A stretch of 64,000 nucleotides of DNA. Origin: an uncultured Elusimicrobia bacterium (lineage in GTDB: Bacteria > Elusimicrobiota > Elusimicrobia > UBA1565 > UBA9628). The stretch is taken from positions 2,115-66,114 of the forward strand of contig CAZIBN010000004.1 of assembly GCA_964537395.1 (NCBI GenBank). The letters run 5' to 3'. The stretch's first letter is position 1. Each line of letters opens with the position of its first letter. Below are positions 589 to 27,160 of this stretch, piece by piece. The notes below the pieces were generated by a model, which searched no databases, was not told the origin of the DNA, and worked only from the letters and a program-made list of their open reading frames with translations. The position numbers were made by a program, and so were the translations under genes.

Positions 589-2025
589 TTAGATGTTCGA
601 GATGAAGACGTTCTTGACCTCGGAATAGAGGTCGAGCGCCTTCAGGCCGAGCTCGCGGCCGAGGCCGGAGCCCTTGTAGCCGCCGAACGGCGCCTCGAGG
701 TGGACGCTCGAGCTGGTGTTCACCGAGATGACGCCGCTTTGCACGGCGCGGGTCACGCGCAGAACGCGGCCGACGTCGCGCGTCCAAAGGCTCGCGGACA
801 GGCCGTAGGCCGAATCATTGGCGAGCCGGATCGCCTCAGCCTCGTCCTTGAACGGGATGACGGCGAGCACCGGTCCGAATATCTCTTCCCTGACGATGGA
901 CATGTTGTCGTCGGTCCCGGCAAAGACGGCGGGAGTGAGATAATGCCCCTTCGGCGGTACGCCCTTGGGGCGAGCGCCGCCGCACAGGAGCTTCGCGCCT
1001 TCGGCCTTGCCCGCGGCGATATATCCCGCGATCTTCTCGTACTGCCGCAGGGAGATGATCGGCCCGATCTGAGTTCCCTTTTTCTCGGGATGTCCTACGA
1101 CGAACTTCTTCGTCCGCGCGACGAGCTGCTCGACAAATTTGTCGTGGATCTTCCGGTGGACCAGAATTCTGGAACGAGCGCAGCAGTCCTGCCCGGCATT
1201 GTAAAAGACGGACCAGACGGATTTTTCGACGCACAGCTCGAGATCCGCGTCGTCAAAGACGATGTTCGGGGATTTCCCCCCCAGCTCGAGCGAGACGCGC
1301 TTGATCCCGTCGGCCGCCGCCTTCATGATGCCCGTGCCGGTCGCCGTCGAGCCGGTGAACGAGATCTTCCGCACGAGAGGATGAGCGACGAGCGCGTCGC
1401 CGCAGCCGGGTCCCGGGCCGGGGACCACGTTGAGCACGCCGTCGGGAAGCCCCGCCTCGGCGGCGAGCTTCGCGAGCGCCAGCGCGGTCAGCGGGGTCTC
1501 GGGAGAGGGCTTCAAAACCACGGTGTTGCCGCAGGCCAGCGCCGGGCCCAGCTTCCAGGCCGCGATCACGAGCGGGAAGTTCCACGGCACGATGAGCCCG
1601 CACACCCCGACCGGCTCGCGCAAGGTGTAGTCGAGGCCCGCTCCCGCGACCGGGATCGTCTCGCCGAAATGCTTGTTGGCGGCGCCGCCGTAGTACTCGA
1701 AGGTGTCGGCGGCCAGGCCCATCTCGTCCTTCGCGTCGCCGAGGGGCTTGCCTGCGTTCCGGCACTCGAGCAAAGCCAGGGAATCGAGGTTCTCGCGGAT
1801 CAATACGGCGATCTTAAGCAGGATCTTGCCGCGCTCGCGGGCATGCATCTTCGACCATGCTCCGTTCGAGGCCTTGATCGCGGCATCCACGGCGTCGTTG
1901 ATGTCCTCCGCCCCTCCTTCCGCGACGCGCGCCAGGAGGGATCCGTCAGCCGGGTTGACGACGGGAAACGTTCTGCCTGACCGAGCAGCGACGAATCTCC
2001 CGTCGATCCACAGCTTGTTCAACAT
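589..2025 (-). CDS. NAD(P)+-dependent aldehyde dehydrogenase
   Basis: 478 aa. Carries ALDH family hallmarks ELGGKSPNIVF and FYNAGQDCCARSR (catalytic Cys) and the N-terminal pattern WIDGRFV...NPADG. Confidence 0.93.
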   Translation of the reverse strand: MLNKLWIDGRFVAARSGRTFPVVNPADGSLLARVAEGGAEDINDAVDAAIKASNGAWSKMHARERGKILLKIAVLIRENLDSLALLECRNAGKPLGDAKDEMGLAADTFEYYGGAANKHFGETIPVAGAGLDYTLREPVGVCGLIVPWNFPLVIAAWKLGPALACGNTVVLKPSPETPLTALALAKLAAEAGLPDGVLNVVPGPGPGCGDALVAHPLVRKISFTGSTATGTGIMKAAADGIKRVSLELGGKSPNIVFDDADLELCVEKSVWSVFYNAGQDCCARSRILVHRKIHDKFVEQLVARTKKFVVGHPEKKGTQIGPIISLRQYEKIAGYIAAGKAEGAKLLCGGARPKGVPPKGHYLTPAVFAGTDDNMSIVREEIFGPVLAVIPFKDEAEAIRLANDSAYGLSASLWTRDVGRVLRVTRAVQSGVISVNTSSSVHLEAPFGGYKGSGLGRELGLKALDLYSEVKNVFISNI

Positions 2026-2026
2026 G

Positions 2027-2803
2027 CTAGAAATAATTAGACGTGATGCCGCCGTCGACGACCATGGCCGCGCCGTTGGTCCAGCGCGACTCGTCGCTCG
2101 CGAGATACAGCGCCATGTTCACGATGTCCTCGGACTTGCCGAAGCGGCCCATGGGAATGCGATTGAGCCGCTTGGCTTTTTCGGCGGGCTCCTTAAAAAG
2201 CCACGCCGTGAGCAGGGGCGTCTCGATCGGGCCAGGGCAGATCGCGTTGGTGCGGATGCCCTTGGGCCCGTACTGCACCGCGAGGGACTTCGAGAGCGCG
2301 AGCACAGCGCCCTTTGAGGCGGTGTAGGCGTCCTGGGGGACGGAGCAGCCCACGAGCGCTACGAACGAGGCCACGTTGATGATCGAGCCGCCGCCGTTGG
2401 CCAAAAGCTCCGGGATGCCGTGCTTGCAGACCAGATAAACGCCTTTGACGTTGACGGCCAACACCGTGTCCCAGACTTTTTCTTCCGTATTCGTGACCGA
2501 GTTGTCGTCGTTGGGGAAGATCCCCGCGTTGTTGTACAAAACGTCGAGCTTGCCGTAAGCCTTGATCGCCGTGGCGATCCCGGCCTTCACCTCGGCTTCC
2601 TTGGCGACGTTCATCGCGACCGCGGTCGCCTTGCCGCCGGCGACGATCGCCGTCTGCACGACGCGCTGGACGGCCTCAAGGTTCATGTCGCAAGCGACGA
2701 CGCTCGCGCCCTCTCGGGAAAAGCGAACCGTCGCCTCCGCGCCCATCCCCGAACCGGCGCCGGTGATCAGAACGACCTTGCCCGCGAGCCGTCCGGCGCT
2801 CAT
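2027..2803 (-). CDS. SDR family oxidoreductase
   Basis: 258 aa. Rossmann motif TGAGSGMG, NNAG, and catalytic YTASKGAV (YxxxK). Its stop lies 1 nt before the start of the downstream aldehyde dehydrogenase gene. Confidence 0.9.
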   Translation of the reverse strand: MSAGRLAGKVVLITGAGSGMGAEATVRFSREGASVVACDMNLEAVQRVVQTAIVAGGKATAVAMNVAKEAEVKAGIATAIKAYGKLDVLYNNAGIFPNDDNSVTNTEEKVWDTVLAVNVKGVYLVCKHGIPELLANGGGSIINVASFVALVGCSVPQDAYTASKGAVLALSKSLAVQYGPKGIRTNAICPGPIETPLLTAWLFKEPAEKAKRLNRIPMGRFGKSEDIVNMALYLASDESRWTNGAAMVVDGGITSNYF

Positions 2804-3102
2804 GAGATGACGAGGAAGCCGGCCTTCTTCACGGCTTCGCGCAGGCGCGTCTTACCAAGATCGGTATCGAGCCCCTTATCCGTCGTCACGGTCAAGTTGC
2901 GGACGACTCGGCCACGGCCGCGCAGCTTACCGACGAGCGTCGAGATGTCCTTCGCCGCCTGACGGACGTTGGTCACCCCTTCCTTCGCGAACCAGCGGAT
3001 CGTGACGGTGCCGCTTTTACGGCTGGGCATCAGCTTGAGGGTGAGGGCGGTTTCGGTGACGAAAAGGTCACCGACCTCTTCCTGTGAATTTCGATCGATC
3101 AT
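2800..3102 (-). CDS. hypothetical protein (100 aa)
   Basis: AGGAGA Shine-Dalgarno 4 nt before the ATG. A 4-nt ATGA overlap with the SDR gene implies translational coupling. I do not recognise any family. Confidence 0.55.
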   Translation of the reverse strand: MIDRNSQEEVGDLFVTETALTLKLMPSRKSGTVTIRWFAKEGVTNVRQAAKDISTLVGKLRGRGRVVRNLTVTTDKGLDTDLGKTRLREAVKKAGFLVIS

Positions 3103-3225
3103 GGCGTCTCCTGCTCGGCGAGGAGTTCACTGTAGCGCAACGGCAACAGGCCTGTCAACGACTGGGGCACCGGCGACGCATTTCGTTAACAGCAGGAGAA
3201 TCGCAAGATCGGAAAGCCTGACCCC

Positions 3226-4320
3226 TTAATGGGCGAGGGACGGCTGGATCAGCCAGCCTTTTTCCTTGGCCTTGGCTTCGAGCTCCTTGTCGCCGGCGAG
3301 GATGATCCGCAGGCCGCCGCCGTAGGACATCAGGTCGGCGTCGGCGATGTCGCGGCCGAGCGCGAGGTCCGGAGGACGCCCCACTGAGGCCTTGACGATC
3401 TCCGCCTTGCCGCTGCGCGTCGGCACCGGCTTAAGCACCGAGGCCGAGTAGCGGTTCCCATCGGGCCCGGCGCGGATTCCGACGATGCGGCTCGGATCGA
3501 TGCCGTAGTCCGGTGCGGCCGCGCTCAGCGCTGGTTGGGGCACATCATCGACGACCCACACGTCCACGCCGGCGGCGCGAAGCTTCTGGGCGAGATCTCG
3601 CATCTCCGGAATAAGCCGCAGACCGCGGCGTACGCGCAAGGGCGACTTGTCGCCCTCCTCGGCGGAAATGAGCTCCACACCCGAGGGGCGAGACTTCTCC
3701 TCGGACAGGTTCTGCCGGGCATACTCGATAGCGTCGCTCTCCTTCCAGCCGGACCACAGCCGCATCAGGTACTGACGGCATTCGCGGCGGCCGACCTCAC
3801 GGCAAAGACCCACATAGCTTTCCATGATCGTCTTGCGGTAGCGGTGATAGTCGGGCTGGGACTGCCACACCGAGCTCGACAGCGAGATGAAGTGATTGTA
3901 AGCCGCGCGTGCTGGCTGGCGCCCCGAGGCGACCGGGATGATCTCCCACCACGCGTCGTCGAACTTGTAGTCGACCCTCGTCGTCAGGCGCAGGAATACC
4001 AGCTCAGCCGGGTCGCCGGCGACCAAGGCGTCGCTCCAGGGGAGGACGGCGACCGGAGGCATGGCCGCGTCGTAGCCCGGAGCGCTCTTGCCGCGCTCCG
4101 CGAGAAACTTGTCGAGGGCGGCGCGCACCTCGGGCGTCCAGCGGCCGGACATCATGCGCTGAGGTCCGCGGGCCGCGGCGGTCGATTCTTCGACCTCCTC
4201 CGTGACGGCGGCCTTCTTCCACATCAACCGGAAATTCTTCGGCCTCTTGGCCTCGGCGGGAGCGGCCGCGAGGACCAGGAGCGCGAACAAAGCCGCGTTT
4301 AGGAGCAAGTATTTCTTCAT
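3226..4320 (-). CDS. exported hypothetical protein, C-terminal part weakly HAD-hydrolase-like
   Basis: 364 aa with signal peptide MKKYLLLNAALFALLVLAAAPAEA. The function is not recognisable with confidence. Confidence 0.6.
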   Translation of the reverse strand: MKKYLLLNAALFALLVLAAAPAEAKRPKNFRLMWKKAAVTEEVEESTAAARGPQRMMSGRWTPEVRAALDKFLAERGKSAPGYDAAMPPVAVLPWSDALVAGDPAELVFLRLTTRVDYKFDDAWWEIIPVASGRQPARAAYNHFISLSSSVWQSQPDYHRYRKTIMESYVGLCREVGRRECRQYLMRLWSGWKESDAIEYARQNLSEEKSRPSGVELISAEEGDKSPLRVRRGLRLIPEMRDLAQKLRAAGVDVWVVDDVPQPALSAAAPDYGIDPSRIVGIRAGPDGNRYSASVLKPVPTRSGKAEIVKASVGRPPDLALGRDIADADLMSYGGGLRIILAGDKELEAKAKEKGWLIQPSLAH

Positions 4321-4387
4321 CGTCGTCGAGCAATGTTATAAAATAAACGCGCCTTACATTCTCGACGGAGGATCACCCAAGCCCAAC

Positions 4388-5446
4388 ATGGCGAACATCA
4401 AGAAGTCGGACCTGCTCAAGGAAGAGATCGAACATATCGACATCACCAAGCACGACATGCGTCCTCTCGTCGAGTCCTTCTCGAAGATGTCCTTCTCCGC
4501 CCGCGACCTCGCGCGCGCGAGCACCATCTACGACAAGATGCTCGCCGACAAGGAATGCGGGGTGATCCTCTGCCTTGCCGGTTCCCTGTTCTCCGCCGGG
4601 CTCAAGAAGATCGTCTGGCAGATGGTCGAGAGCAACATGGTGGACGCGATCGTCTCCACCGGCGCGAACATCGTCGACCAGGATTTCTTCGAGGCCCTCG
4701 GCTACAAGCACTACCGCGGCTCGAAGTGGGAAGACGACATGGCCCTTCGCGGCGCGCGCATCGACCGCATCTACGACACCTTCATCGACGAGGACCAGCT
4801 CGGCGCCTGCGACAACGTCATCTCCGACCTCATCGGGACGCTGAAGCCGAAGCCGTACTCCTCGCGCGAGATCGTCGAAGAGATGGGCAAGTATCTCGTG
4901 AAGAAGTGCAAGGTCAAGGACTCGATCGTGCTGTCCGCGTACAAGAAGGGCGTTCCGATCTTCATCCCCGCCCTCTCGGACTGCTCGGCCGGCTTCGGCT
5001 TCCTGCACCACCAGTGGCACAATCCCGACAGCCACGCCTCGATCGACTCCGCCAAGGACTTCCGCGAGCTGGTTCGCGTGAAGCTCGCCTGCGGCGACAC
5101 CGGCCTCCTGATGATCGGCGGCGGCGTCCCGAAGAACTTCGCCCAGGATGTGACGGTCGGCGCCGAGATGATCGGCCTCGACCCCATCATGCACAAGTAC
5201 GCGGTGCAGATCACCGTGGCCGACGAGCGCGACGGCGCGCTCTCCGGCTCGACTCTGCGCGAGGCGTGCTCGTGGGGCAAGGTCGCGGTCACCGACGAGC
5301 AGATGGTGTTCTCCGAGGCCACCTTGGCCCTCCCCATCCTCGCGGGCTACGGCTGGCACAAGGGCAACTGGAAGAAGCGCCGCGAGCGCCGCTTCAACGC
5401 GTTGCTCAACGACGAGAAGGCGAAGATCCCCGCCGCCCTCCGCTAA
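4388..5446 (+). CDS. deoxyhypusine synthase-like protein (DHS/homospermidine-synthase-type fold)
   Basis: I trimmed the ORF to MANIKKSDLL because the upstream part of the 4202 ORF is AT-rich and does not look coding. It shows DHS family features: STGANIVDQDFFEA, GGGVPKNF, and the catalytic-lysine motif REACSWGKV (eukaryotic EAVSWGK). Confidence 0.85.
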   Translation: MANIKKSDLLKEEIEHIDITKHDMRPLVESFSKMSFSARDLARASTIYDKMLADKECGVILCLAGSLFSAGLKKIVWQMVESNMVDAIVSTGANIVDQDFFEALGYKHYRGSKWEDDMALRGARIDRIYDTFIDEDQLGACDNVISDLIGTLKPKPYSSREIVEEMGKYLVKKCKVKDSIVLSAYKKGVPIFIPALSDCSAGFGFLHHQWHNPDSHASIDSAKDFRELVRVKLACGDTGLLMIGGGVPKNFAQDVTVGAEMIGLDPIMHKYAVQITVADERDGALSGSTLREACSWGKVAVTDEQMVFSEATLALPILAGYGWHKGNWKKRRERRFNALLNDEKAKIPAALR

Positions 5447-5452
5447 AATCAC

Positions 5453-6307
5453 ATGGGTCGGGTCTATTCCGACCTCAAGACCGCCGAATACGGCGCCTCG
5501 GGACACCCCGAGGCGCCGTTTCGCATCAGGAAGACCTTCGACCGCCTCCAATCCGCCGGGCATGTATTGTTACCGCCGAAGGCGAAGGCCGTCGATACGG
5601 ACGTTATTCTTCTTCACGGCACGAACCACCTCGATTCAATCCGTTTGGGGACGTTCCAGGACGCGGACACGCCGTTCTTCCCGAACATCGCCGACATAAG
5701 CATGATCAGCCTGTCCGGCGCGCTCTCAGCCGCTGACGCGGCGCTCGCCGGAGAGCCGTCGTTCTCCCTGATGCGCCCGCCCGGCCATCACGCCGGCAAG
5801 GACAAGGTCGCCGGCTTCTGCTACCTGAATAATCTGGCCCTCGCCGTAGCGCGGCTTCAAAAAACAAAACCCGGACTGAAGGTCGGCATAATCGATTTTG
5901 ATGTCCACCACGGCGACGGCACCCAGGAGCTCGTGCTCGGCCGCGAGAACACGACCTTTCTCTCCCTCCACCAATACCCGCTTTATCCAGGAACGGGGCT
6001 CGACACCCGGGGCAACTGCTGGAACATCCCGCTCGAGGCGGGGACCTCCGGGGACTCCTGGCTTGAGGCTTTTGAACCCGCTTTCGGGCTCCTCCTCGAC
6101 ACGAAGCCCGATGTGCTCGCCGTGTCCGCCGGCTTCGACGCCTACAAAGGCGACCCGATCGCCGGGCTCAAGCTCGACCGCGGCACCTTCAAGCGCATCG
6201 GCTCTTTGCTCGCACAAACGAAGCTCCCGCGCTTCGCGACGCTCGAGGGCGGCTACTCCGAAGACCTCCCCCTTCTCGTCGAAAGCTTCCTGGATGGGTT
6301 CTTTTAG
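5453..6307 (+). CDS. histone deacetylase / acetylpolyamine amidohydrolase family protein
   Basis: 284 aa. Carries RPPGHHAG, DFDVHHGDGTQE and LEGGYS, the zinc-deacetylase family motifs. It starts 6 nt after the DHS-like gene. Confidence 0.85.
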   Translation: MGRVYSDLKTAEYGASGHPEAPFRIRKTFDRLQSAGHVLLPPKAKAVDTDVILLHGTNHLDSIRLGTFQDADTPFFPNIADISMISLSGALSAADAALAGEPSFSLMRPPGHHAGKDKVAGFCYLNNLALAVARLQKTKPGLKVGIIDFDVHHGDGTQELVLGRENTTFLSLHQYPLYPGTGLDTRGNCWNIPLEAGTSGDSWLEAFEPAFGLLLDTKPDVLAVSAGFDAYKGDPIAGLKLDRGTFKRIGSLLAQTKLPRFATLEGGYSEDLPLLVESFLDGFF

Positions 6308-6319
6308 CTAGAATCACTC

Positions 6320-7372
6320 ATGCTCGATTTCGACCCCAATTCCGCGCCCGGCGAAGACACCGGAGTCTTCGGACTCCCCCATAAAGAAAAGGATTCCGCG
6401 CTGGTCCTCGTTCCTGTGCCGTGGGAGGCGACCACCTCTTACGGCGGCGGCACTTCCAAGGGCCCCGCGGCGATCCTCGCGGCCAGCGGCCAGGTCGACC
6501 TGTTCGACGGCGAGGTGCATCGGCCGTACGAACCGGGGATCTTCATGAGGCCCGAATCCAGGGAGGTGCGGGCCTGGAACAAAACGGCGAAGGCCGCGGC
6601 GCAGAAGATCATCAAGGAAGGCGGGCGCATCGACGGGAATAAGAAGCTTCAGAAAGCGCTTCAGGTCGCGAATGACCTCGGCAGCAAGCTGAACGAATGG
6701 GTGTACCGCGAAACGAAGGGTCTCATGGACGCCGGAAAGATCGTGGGCATCGTCGGCGGGGACCACAGCGTGCCTTACGGCGCGTTCCGCGCCGCGGCGG
6801 AGCACCACGGCGATTTCGGATTGCTTCACTTCGACGCTCACTCCGACACGCGCGTCGCCTACGAGGGCTTCACCTGGTCGCACGCGTCCATCATGTACAA
6901 CGCGATGGAGAACATCCCTCAGATCTCCCGGATCGTCCAGGTCGGCATCCGCGACTTCTGCGAGCAGGAGCACGAGTTCACGCGCGCGCTGGGCGCACGC
7001 GCGAAAATCTTCCATGACCGCGACCTGGCCAAACGCCGTTTCGCCGGCGAGCCGTGGACGAAGACCGCAGGCGAGATCGTCGCCGCCCTGCCGCAGCAGG
7101 TCTGGATCACCTTCGACATCGACGGACTGGACCCGAAGCTATGCCCTCATACGGGCACGCCCGTCCCCGGCGGCCTCGAGCTGGCGGAGGCCGTGCACCT
7201 GATCGGGCTCGTCGCGCGCTCCGGGCGCAAAATCATCGGCTTCGACCTCAATGAGGTCTCCCCCGCGCCCGACGGCCGCGACGAGTGGGACGCCAACGTC
7301 GGCATGCGGCTGCTGTACAAGCTCATCGCCTGGACCTTCGTCAGCCGCGGCCTGCGCAAAGCCCGCGAATGA
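6320..7372 (+). CDS. ureohydrolase (agmatinase/arginase/formimidoylglutamase family)
   Basis: 350 aa. Carries the Mn-binding motifs GGDHSVPYG, HFDAHSDTR and TFDIDGLDP. Confidence 0.85.
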   Translation: MLDFDPNSAPGEDTGVFGLPHKEKDSALVLVPVPWEATTSYGGGTSKGPAAILAASGQVDLFDGEVHRPYEPGIFMRPESREVRAWNKTAKAAAQKIIKEGGRIDGNKKLQKALQVANDLGSKLNEWVYRETKGLMDAGKIVGIVGGDHSVPYGAFRAAAEHHGDFGLLHFDAHSDTRVAYEGFTWSHASIMYNAMENIPQISRIVQVGIRDFCEQEHEFTRALGARAKIFHDRDLAKRRFAGEPWTKTAGEIVAALPQQVWITFDIDGLDPKLCPHTGTPVPGGLELAEAVHLIGLVARSGRKIIGFDLNEVSPAPDGRDEWDANVGMRLLYKLIAWTFVSRGLRKARE

Positions 7373-8478
7373 AGATACTCGTGGTCATGGGCACGCGGCC
7401 CGAGGCCATCAAGCTCGCGCCGGTGATTCACGCCTTACGACGGCGCAGAGGCTTAAAAACGTTCGTGTGCGCGACGGCCCAGCACCGTGATTTGCTCGAT
7501 CAGGCGCTCCGTCTTTTTCGTCTGAAACCGGATTTCGATCTGAATCTGATGCGTACGGGACAAACCCCGAACGCGGTCGCCAAGCGAGTCATGAAGTCCC
7601 TCCCCCCCCTGCTCGCGCGCCTCAAGCCGGATATGGTGATCGTCCAGGGCGACACCACCACCGCCGCCGCGGCGGCGGTCTGCGCCGCGAAGCGGCGCAT
7701 TCCGGTCGCTCACGTGGAGGCCGGCCTTCGCTCGTTTGATTTCAAGGACCCGTATCCCGAGGAGCTCAATCGTGTCCTGATCGACTCGATCTCTTCTCTC
7801 GTTTTCCCCCCGACGTCCGCCGCACGCGCCAATCTCGTAAAAGAAAAATTAAATTGCCGGTCGATAATATTGACGGGGAACACCGTGGTCGACGCATTAA
7901 ATTCCGCCGCAGGCGGAAAAGCTCCAGGTCGCCATACCCCGCGCGAGGTGTTGGTGACCCTACACCGCCGCGAGATCCAAGGCGCGCCGTTAAAAAGAAT
8001 TTACACGTGTCTTCTCAAGCTCGTCAACCAACACGAAAATCTGTTGTTCGTCTATCCTGTACACCCCAATCCGTTGATCTTAAAAACCGCGAAGCGGATG
8101 CTCCAGCACCCGCGCATCCGTCTTCTCGACCCGCAGACGTATCCTGCGATGCTCGCTCTCCTCAAGCGCGCCCCGTTCGTCATCACCGATTCCGGCGGCC
8201 TACAAGAGGAGGCGGTCTGCCTCAGGACCCCCGTCCTCGTCGTACGCAATAAGACCGAGCGCCCCGAAGTCATCAAAAGCGGCGCGGGCCGTCTCGTCGG
8301 CCTCGATCCCAAGAAATTGGCCTTCTGGGTCGGGAAGCTCCTCAAGGATCCCGCGCTCCTTCGCCGCATGAGCCACACCCCAAACCCCTACGGCGACGGC
8401 CACGCCTCCGAACGCATCGCCGCCGGCGTCGCCCACTGGTTCGCGTTAGCCCCAAAGCCCAAGGACTGGAAACCATGA
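7369..8478 (+). CDS. wecB: UDP-N-acetylglucosamine 2-epimerase (non-hydrolysing type)
   Basis: Trimmed to MKILVVMGTRPEAIKLAPV, the hallmark N-terminus. ATGA overlap with the ureohydrolase stop. Later motifs HVEAGLRS and DSGGLQEEA are present. Confidence 0.88.
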   Translation: MKILVVMGTRPEAIKLAPVIHALRRRRGLKTFVCATAQHRDLLDQALRLFRLKPDFDLNLMRTGQTPNAVAKRVMKSLPPLLARLKPDMVIVQGDTTTAAAAAVCAAKRRIPVAHVEAGLRSFDFKDPYPEELNRVLIDSISSLVFPPTSAARANLVKEKLNCRSIILTGNTVVDALNSAAGGKAPGRHTPREVLVTLHRREIQGAPLKRIYTCLLKLVNQHENLLFVYPVHPNPLILKTAKRMLQHPRIRLLDPQTYPAMLALLKRAPFVITDSGGLQEEAVCLRTPVLVVRNKTERPEVIKSGAGRLVGLDPKKLAFWVGKLLKDPALLRRMSHTPNPYGDGHASERIAAGVAHWFALAPKPKDWKP

Positions 8479-9515
8479 CCTCTATCATCAAGGCCGTTTA
8501 CCGTCGCCTCTTCCCAGTAGCCCTGCGAGAAAGAATCTCCTATCTCCGCGAGTGGGGCGCTGTCGTCGTCAACTACGCTCTGATGCGCTCGACCATCATG
8601 AATCTGTTCCATTCCTTCGGCGCCTGGCCGCACGCCCTCTACATCGAAGGCACCAATATCTGCAACGCCGCCTGCGTCTTTTGTGCCTACCCGCAGATGG
8701 AGCGCCCCAAGGTCACCATGCCGATGAAGACGTTCCAGAAGGCGATCGACGAGTACCTCGCCTTAGGTCCGGCAGAGGTGGATCTCACCCCCATCGTCGG
8801 CGACCCCTTCGCCGATAAGCACCTCTTCGAGCGCCTGGACGATCTTTCCGCGCGGCCGGGCGTCAAAAAATTCCATTTCTACACCAACGCGATCCTGATG
8901 AAGCCGTCCCAGATCGAGAGGCTCATGCCCTATGGGGAGCGCTTCCGTATTTTCTGCTCGTTCGGCGGCTTCACCCCGGAGGTCTATCACCGGATCATGG
9001 GCGTCGATAAATTCCACGAGGCCGTGGCCGGCATCCGCGCCCTCATCGAGGCGAAGATCCGCACCGGATCTAAAATCCAGATCCAGGTCAACCTCCGCGT
9101 GCCCAAGGGCGACGAGGGCGGCGAGTTCTGGGACTACCTCCAACTCCGAAAAAAGGAAGGCGCCATCACCCTCGACGGCGTGGCCGACTACGACAACTGG
9201 GGCGGGAAGATCCTCAATGAGACGCTGAACGCGGCCGGCTTGATCCCCAAGCCTCCCCCCGTGCACCAGGGCGCATGCCGCCGACTCCTCACCGGCCCGG
9301 TCATCCTCTCCGACGGGCGGGTCAACGCCTGCTGCTGCCGGGACGTGGAGGCCACGCTCATCATCGGGGACATCAACAAGGAGCCTCTGAAAGAAATCCT
9401 CTCCGGGCCGGGCCTCAAGGATCTGTTGAGGCGTCACGCGCAGGGGGATTTCCCCGAGATCTGCAAAACCTGCACGAAATACCAGTCCGTGTGGGCCGGG
9501 GTCAGGGACGAGTAG
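8475..9515 (+). CDS. radical SAM protein with Cys-rich C-terminal (SPASM/twitch-like) region
   Basis: 346 aa. CNAACVFC is a CX3CX2C cluster motif. The C-terminus has ACRRL...NACCCRD...CKTCTKY. ATGA overlap with the wecB stop. Confidence 0.8.
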   Translation: MTSIIKAVYRRLFPVALRERISYLREWGAVVVNYALMRSTIMNLFHSFGAWPHALYIEGTNICNAACVFCAYPQMERPKVTMPMKTFQKAIDEYLALGPAEVDLTPIVGDPFADKHLFERLDDLSARPGVKKFHFYTNAILMKPSQIERLMPYGERFRIFCSFGGFTPEVYHRIMGVDKFHEAVAGIRALIEAKIRTGSKIQIQVNLRVPKGDEGGEFWDYLQLRKKEGAITLDGVADYDNWGGKILNETLNAAGLIPKPPPVHQGACRRLLTGPVILSDGRVNACCCRDVEATLIIGDINKEPLKEILSGPGLKDLLRRHAQGDFPEICKTCTKYQSVWAGVRDE

Positions 9516-10557
9516 CGGGCTTACGGGCCACCAGGCACAGGCAGTCGCCTTTACGATCGGGCATCAGAAGGCAAACCGCCAAGGCCACCGGGATCAGGAA
9601 CGGGAACATCACGACCTTGAAGGCGTCCCGGAGCACGACCTCGATCCGGCGCCGGCTCGCCTTGTCCGCGATCCGGGATTTCACGCCCGTCAGGGACTTC
9701 CCCTCCGCGCCGGCGTCCTCGGCCAGCAGGTCGGTCAAGGTCTTCTTCGCGCCCGCCTTTCCTCCGTACAGCAGACGCTTGACCCCCGACAGGGCGATCG
9801 GGAACAGCTTGTAGAAAAGCTGATCCGAGTAGGACTGGAAGGTGAAGTCGCTCACCCGGACCTCCAGGACCTCCAGGCCGTGGCGCTTCGCCAGGTCCGA
9901 CAGGGCTGACGCGGTCCAGCGTGTGTTATGGTTGGGCGGGAAATCCCAGGCCTCGCGCTCGAGAACGCGTATCCGATCATTGTTGGGGACCGTGACGACA
10001 AGAGCCCCCCCAGGCTGGATAAGCCGGACGATATGCCCGAACGAGCGCCCGGGCTCCGACAGGTGCTCGAGCACGTCGAAAATGGTGACGACATCGTAAG
10101 GCTGAAGCCCGGGCCGTTCGACCAGCTCCTGGATCTCGCCGATCTCGACGGTGTAGTTGCCCTTCCGCCGGCGCGCCATGTCGGGGTTTCCCTCCAGCCC
10201 GGACAAGGCCCCCCGCCAGCCTTCCTCGCCGGCTCGCACGAGGAAGCGCCCGTCCCCGCTGCCGATGTCCAGGAGGCGTCCATGAAGATCGAGCTCGCGC
10301 GCCTTGGAGAAGAAGAAATTGAAGCGCCAGTCTTTTTTTGGCGACGGGTGGATGATCCACTCCGCTTCGGAGTAGAGATGGGCGGCCTTCGTGTACCACT
10401 CCCGGAGCGGGAACTCCGGCGGTATGACGGAAAACGTCACGCCGCACCGGCCGCAGACATGGATGTCGAAATCCTGACCGAAGAGCGGCTCCCGGAAGGT
10501 CTCGCGCGGAAGGCTCTCGGCGGGCGCGGCGCAGGCGGTGCAATTCATCGGCGGCAT
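9502..10557 (-). CDS. class I SAM-dependent methyltransferase with N-terminal Cys4 zinc ribbon and C-terminal TM helix
   Basis: Trimmed to MPPMNCTACAA, 1 nt after the upstream stop. Carries CxxC...CxxC, the SAM motif LLDIGSGDGRF, DVLEHL, and the hydrophobic tail VVMFPFLIPVALAVCLL. Confidence 0.8.
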   Translation of the reverse strand: MPPMNCTACAAPAESLPRETFREPLFGQDFDIHVCGRCGVTFSVIPPEFPLREWYTKAAHLYSEAEWIIHPSPKKDWRFNFFFSKARELDLHGRLLDIGSGDGRFLVRAGEEGWRGALSGLEGNPDMARRRKGNYTVEIGEIQELVERPGLQPYDVVTIFDVLEHLSEPGRSFGHIVRLIQPGGALVVTVPNNDRIRVLEREAWDFPPNHNTRWTASALSDLAKRHGLEVLEVRVSDFTFQSYSDQLFYKLFPIALSGVKRLLYGGKAGAKKTLTDLLAEDAGAEGKSLTGVKSRIADKASRRRIEVVLRDAFKVVMFPFLIPVALAVCLLMPDRKGDCLCLVARKPATRP

Positions 10558-10558
10558 T

Positions 10559-11749
10559 CTAGCAAGAACGGTCCGACCAGGCGCCGATCTTACGGCGCAA
10601 GATGTCCAGGCCCCGACCGACCCCGCCCGCGACGCCGGCCAGCAAGGCCGCGGGCCCGTGCTGGAACAGCTCGGACGCCATCGCGCCGCAAGCCCCGAGG
10701 CGTCCGTGCAAAAGAAGGGACAGAGCGTGTACGAAAAGATCGGCGATCTGGCGCGCTTTGAATTCCGGGCTGATCTGGAACGCGGCCGGCCGCCGCGCCC
10801 CGGCAAAAGCCACGTTCAGCCCGCTCATAACCGCATCGAAGGAAGGCCCTTCCTCGTACTCCCGAAGCGCCCGCGCATAAGCGGAAGCCGCGACCCTCTC
10901 CCTTTCCTCATCGTGGGACAGGTAATAGCGCACCTTCTCAAGCAGGGTCTGTCGGTCGGTGAAGCAGTCGAGCTCCTTGCCGATCTCGAAGATATGAGGC
11001 AGGGCGGGGTAGTATTCGCTCAGGCAGAAGGAGCGCGTCATGGCGACCTCGATCGTCCGCCCCTTGTGCCCCATGGTTTTATCGGCCGTGGGATTTTCAA
11101 GCCGGCTGAAGCTGAGGTTGATCTTGCTGCGATTGAATATCTTCGGCACCTCGGAATTAGGGATAAAGCCGTTGCTTGAGCCGAAGCCATAGCTTTCGAC
11201 CTTGATCCCGCTGGCGAAAAGGAAATCCACATACTCCTTTCGATCTGTCTTCCCGCAATTACCCACGAAGGAAACATCGATATCCTTGGGCAGGTCGAGC
11301 ACGGGGAACAGCTCACGCGAAACGCTGTTCAGGCAAAGGATCGCAGGGACTCCGAGCGCCTGGTAGGCGGCGACGGAGAAATAATCGGTCGTCACGACGG
11401 CGTCCGCCGCCTGAGCGTAGTATTTGGAATGGAGATCGAAGGCGCTCTCGTCGTCATAGCACGCAAGCACGATCTTGACGCTCTTTTTGAGCTCGATGAG
11501 GAATTCGACCGGCACCAGATAGCTGTCGGCGTAAAAGGTCACGAAGAAAACGTCGATCTTCTTCTCCGCGATGATCCGGGAGATCGAGCGCCTGGTTTCG
11601 ACGATTCCCAGCCGTTTATACATCTCGATGAAGTTGAATTCGACGAGGCTGTCGCAACGCTTACGCAGGGCGCGGGTGTGGATATACCCGTCGCAACCCT
11701 CCGGGGTCATCACCAGGACGTTCTTGAACCGCGCGTGGATTAGGGGCAT
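10559..11749 (-). CDS. CgeB-like (DUF3880-type) glycosyltransferase family protein
   Basis: 396 aa. Its overall pattern resembles spore-maturation CgeB-type glycosyltransferases (DVSFVGN..., KINLSFSR, YYLSHDEERERVA). The family assignment is from memory only. Confidence 0.6.
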   Translation of the reverse strand: MPLIHARFKNVLVMTPEGCDGYIHTRALRKRCDSLVEFNFIEMYKRLGIVETRRSISRIIAEKKIDVFFVTFYADSYLVPVEFLIELKKSVKIVLACYDDESAFDLHSKYYAQAADAVVTTDYFSVAAYQALGVPAILCLNSVSRELFPVLDLPKDIDVSFVGNCGKTDRKEYVDFLFASGIKVESYGFGSSNGFIPNSEVPKIFNRSKINLSFSRLENPTADKTMGHKGRTIEVAMTRSFCLSEYYPALPHIFEIGKELDCFTDRQTLLEKVRYYLSHDEERERVAASAYARALREYEEGPSFDAVMSGLNVAFAGARRPAAFQISPEFKARQIADLFVHALSLLLHGRLGACGAMASELFQHGPAALLAGVAGGVGRGLDILRRKIGAWSDRSC

Positions 11750-13293
11750 CAGATCGCGCGGGAGGAAAGCTTCGACTCCACCAAGGTCTTGATGAATTCA
11801 CGATCTTCGTCGTACAAACCCACCCACATCGCCGCGGCATAGAGCAACCCGCCGCCCGCGCTCAGCAGGAGCAGGCGCGGCCACGTCTGCGCCAGCGCAT
11901 GCAACGGGAACACGACCGCCAGAAGCAGGCTCGCGCTCAAGACCGGCCTATGAAGGACATCCGTGAAATAATCCTTCCAGGACAGCGCCAAAAACCTGCG
12001 ATGGACCAGCCACACATTCACCACGGTCACCACTGCCTGGCTCAGGCACGCCCCCATGGCCGCCCCCAGGATGTGATAGCGGGGGATCAGCCAGAGCCAG
12101 GCCAGGATGTTGAGCATGGCCTGCGCCCAGGAGCCCGCGGAGTAGTATTCCGGATGATCACGGCTGGTCGAGATGTTGTTCGGGATGAAGTTGATCGCCG
12201 CGAACGCCTGCGTCAAGACGAGGAATCTCGCGGGCCACACGCTGCGCCCGACGAATTCCGGGCCCAGCCATAGCGTCAGGAACTGGGGCATCAAAGAGAA
12301 GAGCATCACCAGAAACGGCAGCACGATCCAGAGCAGGAACCGGGACGATTTGAGATACATCCGGACCAGCCGCTCACGGGCGTCCGGCCCGTGGATCTCA
12401 CTCATCATGGGCAGGAGCACGGACGCGATCGTGGCGGGCAAGGTCTGCAGCCTCTGCAGCAGGCCCGCCGGCACGGAGTAAAGCGTCAGGTCGATCAAGG
12501 ACACCGTGCGGACGATCAAGGTCTTATCCAGCTGGGAGTTCGCGATGGACGCGACGGGAACGAGCCAGGAGCTGATGCTGAACGCGGCGAATTTTTTGAA
12601 CGATAGAGCCTCGCCGTTCTTGAAATCGCGCGCGGGCCGAAGGAGCTTCCACAGAACGGCGAAGAAGATCAGGCAGATTCCCGCCTGGAGCAGGACGTAC
12701 CATGCGGCAACCCCCCCCAAGCCCAAGCCCTGCGAGATCAAAGCGGCGGCGCCCAGGGGCATGAGGCCGTTTAGAAGCAAGGAGAGGCCGGCCTGCCAGT
12801 CGAAGCGGTGAAGCCCCTGGAGGACGGCGCTCGAGAACTGGATCAGCGCGGAGAAGACCGCGCCCAGCGCGGCGGCGCAAAGAACCCAGGATGCCAGATC
12901 GAGCAACGGCGGCGGAACGTGAAACAGGCGAAAGGCCCAAAAACGGGCTCCGCCGGCGACCACGGCTGCGCCGAGCAGGGCTCCCAGGAGATGCGTCGAT
13001 CCCGCGTAAAAGAGGATGTCCCGCAGGCCGCCGCGATTGCGTGAGGCGTGGAACTGGGCCGTGTACTTGATCGTCGCCGCGCTGGCCCCGAACGAGAGCA
13101 AAGACAGGTAGCCCGCCGTCGCGTAAAGGAGCACGTACAGGGCGTAAGTCTCGATGCCCATACGATGGACCAGGTAGGGGGTCACGAAGAAGCCGATCAC
13201 GGCGACGCCGAGCTGGCCGAGCAGGTTGAATCCGGTATTGCGCACGAACTGCCTGGCTTTGCTCATTTTTGTATCCACATGATACCACGGCAA
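11749..13293 (-). CDS. MOP/Wzx-type polysaccharide (oligosaccharide) flippase
   Basis: 514 aa, polytopic membrane protein. N-terminus SKARQFVRNTGFNLLGQLGVAVIGFFVTPYL is typical of Wzx/PST flippases. TTG start preceded by GGGGGAGG; the alternative ATG is at 13266. Confidence 0.8.
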   Translation of the reverse strand: MPWYHVDTKMSKARQFVRNTGFNLLGQLGVAVIGFFVTPYLVHRMGIETYALYVLLYATAGYLSLLSFGASAATIKYTAQFHASRNRGGLRDILFYAGSTHLLGALLGAAVVAGGARFWAFRLFHVPPPLLDLASWVLCAAALGAVFSALIQFSSAVLQGLHRFDWQAGLSLLLNGLMPLGAAALISQGLGLGGVAAWYVLLQAGICLIFFAVLWKLLRPARDFKNGEALSFKKFAAFSISSWLVPVASIANSQLDKTLIVRTVSLIDLTLYSVPAGLLQRLQTLPATIASVLLPMMSEIHGPDARERLVRMYLKSSRFLLWIVLPFLVMLFSLMPQFLTLWLGPEFVGRSVWPARFLVLTQAFAAINFIPNNISTSRDHPEYYSAGSWAQAMLNILAWLWLIPRYHILGAAMGACLSQAVVTVVNVWLVHRRFLALSWKDYFTDVLHRPVLSASLLLAVVFPLHALAQTWPRLLLLSAGGGLLYAAAMWVGLYDEDREFIKTLVESKLSSRAI

Positions 13294-13344: not shown

Positions 13345-13899
13345 CTAGCGGCGGCCGCGGCGCTGAATGTTCTCTCCGCGCTTCTCACGGCGCTCGCCCC
13401 GGCGCTCCATGCGCTCGCCCCGCTTTTCACGACGTTCGCCCTGCTTTTCCATGCGCTCGCCGCGCTTCTCACGGCGCTCGCCCTGGTTCTCGAGCCTCTC
13501 CCCCTTATTTTCCATACGCTCGGCGGCCTTGTCCTTGCCTTCAGCCTCAAACTTTTCGGATTTTTCCTGGAACTTCTCGCCGCGCTCCTGCATGCGCTCG
13601 CCCTGCTCGTCCAGCTTCTCTCCGCGTTCCTCGCGGCGTTCGCCCTGGCGCTGCATGCGTTCGCCTTTCTTTTGCTTGCGCTCGCCCTGCTTCTCGAGAC
13701 GCGCACCGCGGTTCCCGAGCGCGGGGCTGGCGGGGATCGCGCCGCCGCCCGGGGCTCCGGGCTGGGCCGGCGTCACGCCGGACGGCGTCTGCTGGACGCC
13801 GTCGCCGCTCGTCTCATCGGTCGCGGCATCCCCGGCGCGAGCTGAAACTGAAACCATTAAAACGATCGCAAGCAACGCCCAAGTCATCTTATTCATCAT
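13345..13899 (-). CDS. secreted, highly charged GER-heptad repeat protein
   Basis: AGGGGGA Shine-Dalgarno and signal peptide MMNKMTWALLAIVLMVSVSARA, then a Pro/Gly linker, then about 17 heptads of type GER(R/M)E(K/R)x. It is the only one of four overlapping ORFs here with a start context and a signal peptide. Confidence 0.65.
   Translation of the reverse strand: MMNKMTWALLAIVLMVSVSARAGDAATDETSGDGVQQTPSGVTPAQPGAPGGGAIPASPALGNRGARLEKQGERKQKKGERMQRQGERREERGEKLDEQGERMQERGEKFQEKSEKFEAEGKDKAAERMENKGERLENQGERREKRGERMEKQGERREKRGERMERRGERREKRGENIQRRGRR
13348..13707. repeat. 21-bp periodic tandem repeat (coding)
   Basis: The repeat is visible as reiterated gcgctc[g/a]cc..cgcttctc units. It keeps four frames open on both strands. 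Confidence 0.8.
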
Positions 13900-13910
13900 T
13901 CCCCCTTTGA

Positions 13911-15260: not shown

Positions 15261-15387
15261 GGGCTGAGTGTAAGATAAAAGCCCAAAGCTGTCCAGTCCA
15301 CCCCCTAAAAATAACAACATATCAACAAACAGCACTTATCGACACTGAACAATCTCTAAAGACGTTAATTAGCAATATGATGAGGTC

Positions 15388-15416
15388 TTGACAACTTTAT
15401 AACCACATGCTAAGAT
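15388..15416 (+). promoter_or_regulatory. sigma70-type promoter of parAB
   Basis: TTGACA (15388-15393), 17-nt spacer, TAAGAT (15411-15416). Confidence 0.6.
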
Positions 15417-15435
15417 AGTTTTCACGAGTAAACAC
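15417..15435. repeat. 19-bp direct repeat copy 1 (parS-like core)
   Basis: AGTTTTCACGAGTAAACAC lies immediately after the -10 box. An identical copy is at 15459..15477. Confidence 0.85.
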
Positions 15436-15458
15436 CCGTTTTCGATGTCAGGAAAATG

Positions 15459-15477
15459 AGTTTTCACGAGTAAACAC
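15459..15477. repeat. 19-bp direct repeat copy 2
   Basis: AGTTTTCACGAGTAAACAC ends 3 nt before the parA ATG. Confidence 0.85.
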
Positions 15478-15480
15478 AAC

Positions 15481-20122: not shown

Positions 20123-20620
20123 ATGACCAACATCCTCGCCGTCGCCGCGCTGATCGCCTCTCAGATGGGAGCGCCGCTCCCCGCCGACACCCCCGCCGTC
20201 GTCGTGCCGGTCGCGACGGCGAAAGCCGCTGCAGCGCCCAGCGCCGCCCTGAGCTCCGGATACATCTCGGCCTCGGGCAACCTGACCGGCTCCGGCTATC
20301 TGCAGTGCCATTCGGGCTGGATGAACGGATCGATCAATCTCAGCGCCCAGATGTCGGTCAACGGCCCTGACGGCGTACACGGGACTGTTCCTGTCTCAGG
20401 CTATGTCCACCTGAGCGGCTCATGCCAGAACGGGTCAGGCTTTGTGAACGGATCCGCGTCGGTGAACGGCTATGGCACCCTCTATACGCGTGAAGGCAAG
20501 CGCGCCGGAACGGTCAACCTCAACGGTTCGGTGTTCGTCAACCAGTACGCCTCCGGCTACCTGTGGGTCAACCAGTACGCGAACGTGAGCGGCTACTTCA
20601 CCGCCGATCCCGCGAACTAG
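20123..20620 (+). CDS. hypothetical secreted Gly/Ser/Asn-repeat protein (165 aa)
   Basis: Hydrophobic N-terminus followed by reiterated (S/N)G(S/Y)..VNG units (SGYISASGNLTGSGYL, NGSGFVNGSASVNGYG, NLNGSVFVNQYASGYLWVNQYANVSGY). Confidence 0.6.
   Translation: MTNILAVAALIASQMGAPLPADTPAVVVPVATAKAAAAPSAALSSGYISASGNLTGSGYLQCHSGWMNGSINLSAQMSVNGPDGVHGTVPVSGYVHLSGSCQNGSGFVNGSASVNGYGTLYTREGKRAGTVNLNGSVFVNQYASGYLWVNQYANVSGYFTADPAN

Positions 20621-24640: not shown

Positions 24641-27160
<2,520 letters not shown>

Follow-up and report, generated by a model that had tools for sequence, protein, structure and literature searches.

Organization of the locus

The window considered here is the whole 64-kb stretch of DNA that was analysed, from an uncultured Elusimicrobia bacterium. 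Within it, a deoxyhypusine synthase (DHS)-like gene, referred to below as speY, opens a run of five co-directional genes bordered by genes of the opposite orientation:

3226-4320, minus strand: secreted HAD-like gene, divergent from speY
4321-4387: 67-nt intergenic region between the HAD-like gene and speY, presumed to hold the operon promoter
4388-5446, plus strand: speY (DHS-like), 352 aa; Pfam DS, 5.8e-91
5453-6307, plus strand: HDAC-like gene, 284 aa; Pfam Hist_deacetyl, 1.2e-57
6320-7372, plus strand: arginase-family ureohydrolase gene (ARG; putative duh), 350 aa; Pfam Arginase, 7.6e-54
7369-8478, plus strand: wecB (non-hydrolysing UDP-GlcNAc 2-epimerase); Pfam Epimerase_2, 1.8e-98; TIGR00236, 407 bits against a cutoff of 210
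8475-9515, plus strand: radical SAM/SPASM gene (Pfam Radical_SAM and SPASM), the last co-directional gene of the run
9502-13293, minus strand: methyltransferase, glycosyltransferase and flippase genes, convergent, after the radical SAM gene

The ATG at 4388 agrees as a start with the 350-352-aa lengths of speY homologues. Read directly, the junctions consist of a 6-nt gap between speY and the HDAC-like gene (TAA, AATCAC, ATG), a 12-nt gap between the HDAC-like gene and ARG (TAG, CTAGAATCACTC, ATG), and ATGA overlaps at 7369-7372 (ARG/wecB) and 8475-8478 (wecB/radical SAM), the first of which couples wecB translationally to ARG. The tight three-gene operon described in the initial annotation, with its overlaps into wecB and the radical SAM gene, is thereby confirmed, as are the three family assignments, by the profile-HMM matches listed above. 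No plausible plus-strand terminator was found between the operon genes, and the 4321-4387 intergenic region holds no plus-strand match to the sigma-70 consensus. The divergent order upstream (HAD-like gene, a gene of ~100 aa, SDR and ALDH genes, then speY) is kept in relatives.

A predicted SpeY-type enzyme

The product of 4388-5446 is, judged by its sequence, a SpeY-type DHS homologue and no hypusination enzyme. It scores 554.3 bits (8e-167) with the NCBIfam SpeY equivalog NF002699, for which the cutoff is 500, residues 8-340 of 352 aligning with positions 2-337 of the 338 in the model. The same model is passed by Trichormus SpeY (592) and Sphingomonas SpeY (564), to which the window protein is 60% and 54% identical, respectively; the sphingomonad speY adjoins a gene for an ODC-like PLP decarboxylase, an arrangement shared with R. 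wittichii, which has been tested experimentally. Each of the seven residues highlighted in Thermus CdmS has a counterpart: S66, E135, D142, F203, L285, E292 and K298 correspond to S67, E136, D143, F204, L286, E293 and K299 of CdmS, among which S67, E293, E136 and D143 bind the guanidino group. The partner ureohydrolase expected of a SpeY is represented by the arginase-family gene in the same operon.

Human DHS (PDB 6XXJ/1RLZ) and archaeal DHS (7CMC, 8PUT) have in common with the window protein the fold, the GGG NAD-binding motif and the catalytic lysine in SWGK. The initial annotation had pointed out this lysine motif, and correctly so: K298, within TLREACSWGKV, aligns with catalytic K329 of human DHS and is invariant in five SpeYs from three phyla. 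D198, equivalent to human D238, is likewise common to both. However, the best match to a DHS structure reaches only 3.8e-32, and assignment as a true DHS was rejected on two grounds. First, all five DHS equivalog models remain below their cutoffs (NF002006, 301 against 434; NF002630, 224 against 364; TIGR00321, 212 against 304; NF002294, 163 against 350; NF003052, 142 against 380). Second, the spermidine-binding D243 and catalytic H288 of human DHS are replaced by F203 and N250, both invariant in SpeYs of three phyla; at D316 there is L285, which, like F203, is non-acidic. Whereas DHS takes spermidine as donor and eIF5A as acceptor, the window enzyme would be expected to use one agmatine as donor and a second as acceptor.

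SpeY-type homologues use neither spermidine nor putrescine but couple two agmatines to N1,N9-bis(guanidino)homospermidine (diagmatine, G44G), from which a ureohydrolase encoded nearby cleaves the two guanidino groups, releasing urea and homospermidine (PMC10981699; PMC13625781). The initial annotation regarded a bacterial DHS homologue as an anomaly, a view that is now outdated, since SpeY is described as occurring more widely than bacterial HSS (Li et al. 2026 JBC, PMC13625781). Its suggestion of a homospermidine or other aminobutyl-transfer route was essentially right as to the route; the chemistry is instead that of agmatine homocoupling.

Conservation of gene order

The gap between speY and the HDAC-like gene is 3-10 nt in 23 of 23 loci that have an HDAC orthologue of 70-100% identity, a count that includes one shorter assembly identical to the window, and also in one further locus where the orthologue is 58% identical (L172). 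Because this spacing recurs across related loci, the speY-HDAC arrangement is not due to chance. ARG lies downstream of the HDAC-like gene in 19 of the 20 loci among the 23 with enough flanking sequence, and in L172 as well, whose contig ends within ARG. Every HDAC orthologue found at 58% identity or above adjoins either speY or an agmatinase-family gene; in one locus (L175) it follows a different agmatinase-family gene. In five lineages the HDAC-like gene and ARG are separated by insertions of ~1 kb, yet the 3-10-nt spacing between speY and the HDAC-like gene is never broken.

Beyond these loci the picture changes. The HDAC-like gene is absent from the speY loci of more distant Elusimicrobiota, where speY is directly followed by the ureohydrolase gene; the ureohydrolase orthologues there are 57-63% identical to that of the window, and in the HDAC-less relatives L006-L009 they lie 3-27 nt after speY. 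In ~140 loci of other phyla, where identity to the HDAC-like protein does not exceed 49%, no homologue lies beside speY or ARG or has polyamine-gene neighbours. The HDAC-like gene is thus a clade-specific insertion, kept by one uncultured Elusimicrobiota lineage. The initial annotation had named two observations that together would speak against its reading, namely clustering of the DHS-like protein with characterised homospermidine synthases and a trio not conserved as a neighbourhood. The first was borne out, in that the protein groups with characterised homospermidine-pathway enzymes; the second was not, although the neighbourhood is kept within one Elusimicrobiota lineage only. Gene-order conservation within a single lineage could reflect inheritance instead of selection.

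A proposed route to homospermidine

We consider it probable, from homology and gene order, that the locus is an agmatine-dependent homospermidine module consisting of speY and duh, to which an HDAC-fold accessory gene and downstream passengers have been added. The proposed pathway has two steps: (i) from family membership and conserved residues, NAD+ bound to SpeY would oxidise the primary amine of one agmatine, the 4-guanidinobutyl group would be carried as an imine on K298 and then passed to a second agmatine at its amine, and reduction would yield G44G; and (ii) the binuclear-Mn ureohydrolase encoded at 6320-7372 would cleave off the two guanidino groups by hydrolysis, leaving sym-homospermidine plus two urea. 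Homocoupling of agmatine by SpeY, followed by stripping of the guanidino groups by the ureohydrolase, would explain why a DHS homologue is paired with a guanidino-hydrolase. Genes for an aminopropyltransferase and an AdoMetDC, 13 kb away, add a polyamine context. In this scheme the HDAC-like gene would be dispensable to the core chemistry, given that duh comes directly after speY in sister lineages. It was probably acquired by one sub-lineage and then kept translationally close to speY, and a block of glycan genes was probably inserted at a variable site 3' of duh.

The locus resembles the characterised SpeY/CdmS and DUH (diagmatine ureohydrolase) systems (Kobayashi et al. 2024 Sci Rep; Li et al. 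2026 JBC) in passing NF002699, in the seven residues, and in having an arginase-family ureohydrolase in the same operon; speY and duh have been proposed to be transferred jointly as a module (PMC13625781). It differs from those systems in that no arginine decarboxylase gene lies in the cluster or among the genes scanned in the 64-kb window, in a helical insert of ~65 aa in the ureohydrolase, and in the HDAC-family gene between speY and duh, which is mentioned in neither PMC10981699 nor PMC13625781. Elusimicrobiota are mentioned in neither paper. The two-enzyme diagmatine route is already known, and what is new is the HDAC-type gene between speY and the ureohydrolase gene in one lineage. Since the route was defined only in 2024-2026, the locus would extend it to uncultured Elusimicrobiota, and it illustrates how to interpret "deoxyhypusine synthase" annotations in bacteria.

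The HDAC-like protein

The product of 5453-6307 is predicted to be a short Zn amidohydrolase of the HDAC/arginase-deacetylase fold. No NCBIfam model matches it, but the catalytic set of acetylpolyamine amidohydrolases (APAHs) is present, with tandem histidines (H112, H113), Asp/His/Asp metal ligands (among D148, D150, H152 and D229) and Tyr (Y268), all of these residues being invariant in 37 orthologues. These features and the fold are common to APAH (Mycoplana ramosa 3Q9B; Marinobacter 6PHR) and HDAC10. A close relationship to characterised APAHs was nevertheless rejected. The AF2 model (pLDDT 87) has as its best PDB match the lysine deacylase 5zmp (TMq 0.91, 32% identity), which also ranks first by sequence among single-domain PDB chains (1.6e-40), ahead of APAH 3q9b (9e-32, TMq 0.85, 26-28% identity in structural alignments) in all three measures; APAH is, moreover, 341 aa long, so that the window protein is ~57 residues shorter. 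From its entry title and residue numbering, we infer that 5zmp is CddA of Synechococcus sp. PCC 7002 (PMC12224894), a short lysine deacylase of similar size (~305 aa). An offset-based mapping suggests plausible counterparts for most CddA pocket residues, including the catalytic His-His and Tyr: H112, H113, F122, Y178, Y268, and I236 in place of Leu.

There is accordingly a real, if less than even, chance that the protein is a CddA-like lysine deacetylase or deacylase with no role in polyamine metabolism, acting either as a regulator, for instance by removing acyl groups from SpeY, from the ureohydrolase or from other proteins, or being carried along as a neutral inherited passenger. Such a function fits the ranking of 5zmp and the pocket residues, the homologues in other phyla that lack polyamine neighbours, and the sister lineages whose core pathway has no HDAC gene. 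It also fits the lack of a polyamine N-acetyltransferase gene consistently nearby; a GNAT gene present in two loci (L002 and L003) is absent in the others. Against it stand the adjacency of all orthologues of at least 58% identity to speY or an agmatinase-family gene and the unbroken speY-HDAC spacing. In addition, identity to CddA, a protein not reported from any polyamine operon, is no higher than 32%, and the scores of APAH and HDAC6 are nearly as good, so that similarity does not reveal the substrate class. If the protein does act on proteins, it would be an unusual lysine deacylase embedded in a polyamine operon.

Our best guess for a polyamine-related role is that the enzyme deacetylates acetyl-homospermidine, acetyl-spermidine, acetyl-putrescine or acetyl-agmatine, which would couple the expression of polyamine salvage to that of synthesis. 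The case for acetylpolyamine substrates is weak, the nearest solved relative being 5zmp and not APAH or HDAC10. There is a precedent in giant viruses, in which homospermidine synthesis is co-encoded with an acetylpolyamine amidohydrolase (PMC9992855). A stronger version, which we regard as possible but doubtful, counts the HDAC-fold protein as a true third enzyme, so that this lineage would have a variant route to homospermidine. The substrate of the third enzyme might then be N-acetylagmatine, feeding SpeY, or N-acetyl-homospermidine or an N-acetylated intermediate, and synthesis would be gated by an acetyl protection and deprotection step. Activity on polyamines would tie acetylation and deacetylation to homospermidine synthesis and supply a function for the large group of bacterial HDAC-like proteins of ~285 aa, so far uncharacterised; a third-enzyme role would add a new class to the substrates of minimal HDAC-like enzymes in bacteria.

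The arginase-family ureohydrolase

The product of 6320-7372 is a putative DUH that would release homospermidine and two urea, an assignment that draws on the fold, the metal-binding residues and the recurrent position next to speY. [quoted passage not shown] E. coli agmatinase is the top structural match of the AF2 model (pLDDT 91); identity to any solved agmatinase-family structure is only 20-25%, and the insert noted above forms two helices.

It is unlikely that the protein, instead of being a DUH, is a canonical agmatinase, an N1-aminopropylagmatine ureohydrolase that serves the spermidine genes nearby, or a guanidinobutyrase that acts with the upstream ALDH in agmatine catabolism. Its score is below but near the agmatinase equivalog cutoff (161.9 against 174.3), guanidinobutyrase and guanidinopropionase are among the PDB matches at similar scores, aminopropyltransferase and AdoMetDC genes lie 13 kb from the operon, and the conserved upstream ALDH resembles aminobutyraldehyde and betaine-aldehyde dehydrogenases. 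However, direct adjacency to speY is kept across Elusimicrobiota lineages, a canonical agmatinase has been argued to starve SpeY of its substrate, and SpeY-linked homologues were reported to be G44G-specific (PMC13625781). In Thermus, SpeB accepts aminopropylagmatine as well as G44G (PMC10981699), and a dual use of this kind would be compatible with the homospermidine module.

Glycans and proteins as acceptors

The co-transcribed genes downstream led the initial annotation to suggest aminobutylation of an amino sugar or glycan. In such a scheme the five co-directional genes would form one functional unit that decorates an amino sugar or a surface glycan with a polyamine or with an aminobutyl or guanidinobutyl group, with wecB supplying UDP-ManNAc and the radical SAM enzyme tailoring the product. 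The ATGA overlaps joining ARG, wecB and the radical SAM gene would fit, as would the glycosyltransferase, methyltransferase and flippase genes that come next and the recurrence of the 4-nt ARG/wecB overlap in six related loci. Those six, however, are the closest ones: wecB does not follow ARG in the remaining 13 HDAC-bearing loci that are informative, nor in any HDAC-less relative, and the radical SAM gene has no tblastn match in any related locus, being present only in this window. Elsewhere ARG is followed by a glnA-like gene, by GNAT or Fic genes or by others, and the glycan-gene block of the window replaces a short interval between ARG and the glnA-like gene of relatives. The stretch that follows ARG is a site of variable insertions, and wecB is probably a passenger outside the polyamine pathway, sharing a transcript with the radical SAM gene and the operon because the block was inserted downstream of duh. 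Since, in addition, every SpeY that has been tested releases its product as a free polyamine, we find a role in glycan modification highly improbable.

That the DHS-like enzyme instead adds an aminobutyl group to a lysine of EF-P or another bacterial protein, its donor or adduct being processed by the deacetylase and ureohydrolase, can scarcely be upheld against the failed DHS models, the F203 and N250 replacements, the formation of free G44G by every tested SpeY in E. coli with no protein acceptor (PMC13625781), and the lack of an EF-P gene among the window genes scanned, even though the DS fold and catalytic lysine are present. The link between DHS and agmatinase in haloarchaea that the initial annotation mentioned does match an agmatine-dependent aIF5A route with an agmatinase-like step proposed in Haloferax (PMC5178350).

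Gene organization of the operon

The initial annotation described five co-directional genes headed by a deoxyhypusine synthase (DHS)-like gene, with gaps of 6 and 12 nt, ATGA overlaps and a REACSWGKV motif in the DHS-like protein, and all of these are confirmed in the sequence. ORF listing and translation define the genes as follows, and a profile search matched the DS, Hist_deacetyl and Arginase families of Pfam, which bears out the families named for the first three:

4388-5446 (+), DHS-like gene (speY), 352 aa; Pfam DS, 5.8e-91
5453-6307 (+), HDAC-like gene, 284 aa; Pfam Hist_deacetyl, 1.2e-57
6320-7372 (+), arginase-family ureohydrolase gene (ARG), 350 aa; Pfam Arginase, 7.6e-54
7369-8478 (+), wecB; Pfam Epimerase_2
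8475-9515 (+), radical SAM/SPASM gene; Pfam Radical_SAM and SPASM

The DHS-like/HDAC-like junction reads TAA-AATCAC-ATG (6 nt), the HDAC-like/ARG junction reads TAG-CTAGAATCACTC-ATG (12 nt), and ATGA occurs at 7369 (ARG/wecB) and 8475 (wecB/radical SAM). We place the start of the DHS-like gene at the ATG at 4388 rather than the upstream GTG at 4202, because homologues of 350-352 aa align with full coverage and a divergent gene fills the region upstream of 4321.

AATCAC is common to both short spacers, the one at 5447-5452 before the HDAC-like start (taaAATCACatg) and the one at 6308-6319 before the ureohydrolase start (tagctagAATCACtcatg), and GGAGGATCAC is found at 4365-4374, 13 nt ahead of the speY start. 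There is no canonical Shine-Dalgarno sequence ahead of the HDAC-like or ureohydrolase genes, a promoter and terminator scan of the + strand gave nothing convincing, and an Rfam scan of the whole window matched no riboswitch, leader or other family.

A predicted SpeY and its ureohydrolase

We assign the DHS-like gene as a predicted speY with high confidence and reject a true DHS, based on HMM results, the residues of CdmS, the relatives of the protein in Trichormus and Sphingomonas, and the Sphingomonas gene context. The protein is below cutoff in all five DHS equivalogs of NCBIfam and also falls below a separate "homospermidine biosynthesis protein" model (185 vs 450). The DHS homologue of Thermus thermophilus, CdmS, converts two agmatines to diamidino-homospermidine (caldomycin), from which a ureohydrolase produces homospermidine (Kobayashi et al. 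2024, PMC10981699). The CdmS residues named in that study (S67, E136, D143, F204, L286, E293 and K299) correspond to S66, E135, D142, F203, L285, E292 and K298 of the window protein, with a uniform offset of -1. In an alignment to human DHS, K298 falls at K329, F203 at D243, L285 at D316 and N250 at H288; the failed equivalogs and the substitutions at D243 and H288 are what speak against a true DHS. Because N250 (in GGGVPKNF) is invariant across SpeYs of Elusimicrobiota, a cyanobacterium and a sphingomonad, it is a family trait rather than a defect.

SpeY homologues of diverse phyla all make G44G (N1,N9-bis(guanidino)homospermidine, or "diagmatine"), which is not made by human DHS, plant DHS or bacterial HSS (Li et al. 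2026, PMC13625781). Two plasmid-borne SpeY sequences used for comparison, from Trichormus and Sphingomonas, share 60% and 54% identity with the window protein, and both pass the same SpeY HMM as it does. An ODC-like PLP decarboxylase gene adjoins the Sphingomonas speY, an arrangement also reported in Rhizorhabdus wittichii, which has been tested by experiment (PMC13625781). Within the limits of sequence evidence, modification of EF-P, which had been raised as a possible function, is excluded, since the protein fails the DHS models and lacks the counterparts of D243 and H288, and the SpeYs that have been tested yield a free small molecule.

The arginase-family protein retains a complete set of binuclear-metal ligands (GGDHS, FDAHSDT and FDIDGLD), which are invariant among homologues, and it scores slightly under the agmatinase equivalog cutoff of NCBIfam (161.9 vs 174.3). 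The closest structures to its confident AlphaFold model (pLDDT 91) are those of E. coli agmatinase and of proclavaminate amidinohydrolase, which lack the extra pair of long helices that it has at residues ~81-137. In Caldilinea and Winogradskyella, the agmatinase homologues associated with SpeY hydrolyse G44G and not agmatine (diagmatine ureohydrolases, DUH; PMC13625781); speY and duh have been proposed to move together as a unit (Li et al. 2026, PMC13625781). Among related loci from other contigs, four of Elusimicrobiota (L006-L009, with SpeY 71-74% identical) have a ureohydrolase orthologue (59-61%) directly after speY and no HDAC gene, and L005 has one 5 kb from speY. From fold, ligands and conserved linkage, we infer that the arginase-family protein is a diagmatine ureohydrolase, and that the window carries a speY and duh module. 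With spermidine genes nearby, the enzyme may also have a second role, acting on N1-aminopropylagmatine as happens in Thermus.

As judged from its genes, the core of the operon encodes a pathway already known from recent work, here in a phylum without an earlier report of it; literature searches for Elusimicrobia and homospermidine gave no match. The core pathway would be ordinary to a specialist familiar with the work of 2024-2026. What is new is the conserved HDAC-family insertion, which offers a clean target for experiments.

The HDAC-like gene

The HDAC-like gene is the part left unexplained by the known pathway, and a deacetylase is mentioned in neither PMC10981699 nor PMC13625781. Its product has a minimal HDAC fold in which the catalytic residues H112, H113, D148, D150, H152, D229 and Y268 are all present and invariant in 37 orthologues. 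Scanning metagenomes and looking up contigs yielded 23 loci whose HDAC orthologue is 70-100% identical, counting L004, a shorter assembly that matches the window exactly across speY and the HDAC gene; the same identity is seen for a 3.3-kb contig in a public run. The HDAC gene follows speY by 3-10 nt in 23 of 23 loci, and in no locus was an insertion seen between the two. Twenty loci have sufficient flank to look for ARG, and 19 of these carry it downstream of the HDAC gene, at a distance of 13-163 nt in 14 and of ~1-1.4 kb in 5; L106 has no ARG within 6 kb. A more divergent HDAC orthologue (58%) keeps the order speY, HDAC, ARG, with SpeY 77% and ARG 63% identical to those of the window. The loci with the longer HDAC-ARG interval are L001, L094, L099, L101 and L103, and in L001 the ~1-kb interval is filled by a HATPase_c/DUF4325 gene on the opposite strand, at 8852-9940 (-).

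HDAC homologues at 31-49% identity have a different setting. They were drawn from 80 GTDB-genome loci of many phyla, ~60 metagenome loci and one 644-kb contig; the GTDB loci (31-46% identity) came from a scan of genome contigs with a profile built from 19 aligned short HDAC homologues, and speY and ARG were looked for around them by tblastn. None of these homologues is near speY or ARG, apart from one on a Bathyarchaeia contig with an archaeal DHS 6 kb away, which we take as coincidence. Clustering of their neighbours returned only lineage-specific synteny (e.g. Pelagibacter fmt/truA/def) and nothing related to polyamines. On a low-coverage, frameshifted contig (L175, 46-1852), a 59%-identical HDAC lies directly after another, shorter agmatinase-family gene (27% to that of the window) and is followed by parA; the contig ends just upstream of the shorter gene.

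The trio of genes is thus conserved as a neighbourhood within one Elusimicrobiota lineage, from which all of the synteny evidence for the HDAC link comes, and was not found in the loci of other phyla. Given the constant 3-10-nt spacing from speY in the orthologues and the location of distant homologues away from speY and ARG, we conclude that the HDAC gene was gained once, between speY and duh, in a single Elusimicrobiota sub-lineage. Within the same loci, identity to the window is 70-83% for HDAC, 81-97% for SpeY and 76-92% for ARG; the HDAC gene evolves faster than its neighbours and has stayed translationally close to speY.

Similarity leaves the substrate of the HDAC-like protein unsettled. 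Among solved structures the best match is 5zmp, titled "a lysine deacylase" (32% identity, TMq 0.91, 1.6e-40); after it come a Burkholderia protein that is uncharacterised, catalytic domains of HDAC6 and, at TMq ~0.85, acetylpolyamine amidohydrolases. Literature searches for 5ZMP gave no match; to judge from the entry title and residue numbering, it is probably the protein deacetylase/depropionylase CddA from Synechococcus 7002 (PMC12224894). Two readings carry roughly comparable weight. The protein may be an acetylpolyamine (or acetylagmatine) amidohydrolase, as the operon context favours and as the co-encoding of homospermidine synthesis and acetylpolyamine amidohydrolase (APAH) in giant viruses would suggest (PMC9992855); however, a protein deacylase is the better match, and no polyamine acetyltransferase is conserved nearby. 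An Acetyltransf_3 gene beside ARG in L002 and L003, considered as a polyamine-type GNAT companion, has no counterpart in the window or the other loci. Alternatively, the HDAC-like protein may be a protein deacylase or a passenger of the operon. We do not claim APAH membership for it.

Genomic setting

The closest homologues of the SpeY, HDAC-like and ureohydrolase proteins are all from uncultured Elusimicrobiota MAGs and metagenomes. The window spans a chromosomal origin region, so the polyamine genes lie close to oriC, and it includes further genes of polyamine metabolism:

15481-17195 (+), parA/parB; replication-origin neighbourhood
20617-21465 (-), polyamine aminopropyltransferase; NF002010 350 bits, cutoff 260
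21462-22400 (-), eukaryote-type AdoMetDC; Pfam PF01536 1.4e-63; TIGR00535 162 vs 233, below cutoff
24641-32892 (-), dnaA, dnaN, gyrB, gyrA; replication-origin neighbourhood

The aminopropyltransferase and AdoMetDC genes overlap by 4 nt, and with their presence spermidine-type and homospermidine routes are seemingly both encoded within 17 kb. This class-2 SpeD homologue may be a genuine AdoMetDC or a neofunctionalised enzyme, for example an arginine decarboxylase (ADC). Pfam and NCBIfam scans of about 45 ORFs of the window otherwise revealed no ADC.

Most relatives have a convergent glnA-like gene after ARG, with parAB next; in the window, the glnA-like gene and parAB occupy 13911-17195. The ~6.5 kb between ARG and the glnA-like gene of the window holds wecB, the radical SAM gene, a methyltransferase, a glycosyltransferase, a flippase and a repeat protein. 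The 4-nt overlap of wecB with the ARG stop is found only in the six closest loci, the radical SAM gene has no counterpart in any other locus compared, and other lineages have different insertions after ARG, such as GNAT or Fic/HTH genes; wecB and the sugar-nucleotide genes are therefore best regarded as co-transcribed passengers at a variable site. Aminobutylation of a glycan had been proposed from these same genes; as passengers, they provide no evidence for it.

At the position of the L002/L003 GNAT, a window ORF (13345-13914, -) encodes a signal peptide and highly charged GERREKRGER-type repeats with no family match; it could specify a genuine secreted protein or be spurious. The Gln-synt_C protein (13911-15335, -; 474 aa), whose gene comes shortly after that of the ureohydrolase in most relatives, falls under every glutamine synthetase equivalog (GS-III 231 vs 470, GlnA 203 vs 429, gamma-glutamylputrescine synthetase 185 vs 650) and may be a gamma-glutamyl-polyamine synthetase-like enzyme.

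Beside speY is a divergent block (589-4320, -) whose products are a secreted HAD-like protein of 364 aa, a protein of ~100 aa, an SDR and an aldehyde dehydrogenase. Elusimicrobiota conserve this block even in lineages that lack the HDAC gene, and it is also beside speY in L001-L003, L005, L095, L098, L100, L101, L103, L105-L107 and L114. The window copy of the HAD-like protein has a signal peptide and no Pfam match; it was considered as a novel ADC and rejected because of the signal peptide and weak HAD-family matches in its orthologues. The aldehyde dehydrogenase resembles betaine-aldehyde and aminobutyraldehyde dehydrogenases, scoring under their cutoffs, and its substrates might be amino- or guanidino-aldehydes from polyamine metabolism. 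Elsewhere in the window, an 821-aa protein (43577-46042, -) is an unusual fusion of two ATP-grasp modules: the N-terminal half resembles L-amino-acid ligases, and the C-terminal half resembles D-Ala-D-Ala ligases but scores under the Ddl cutoffs.
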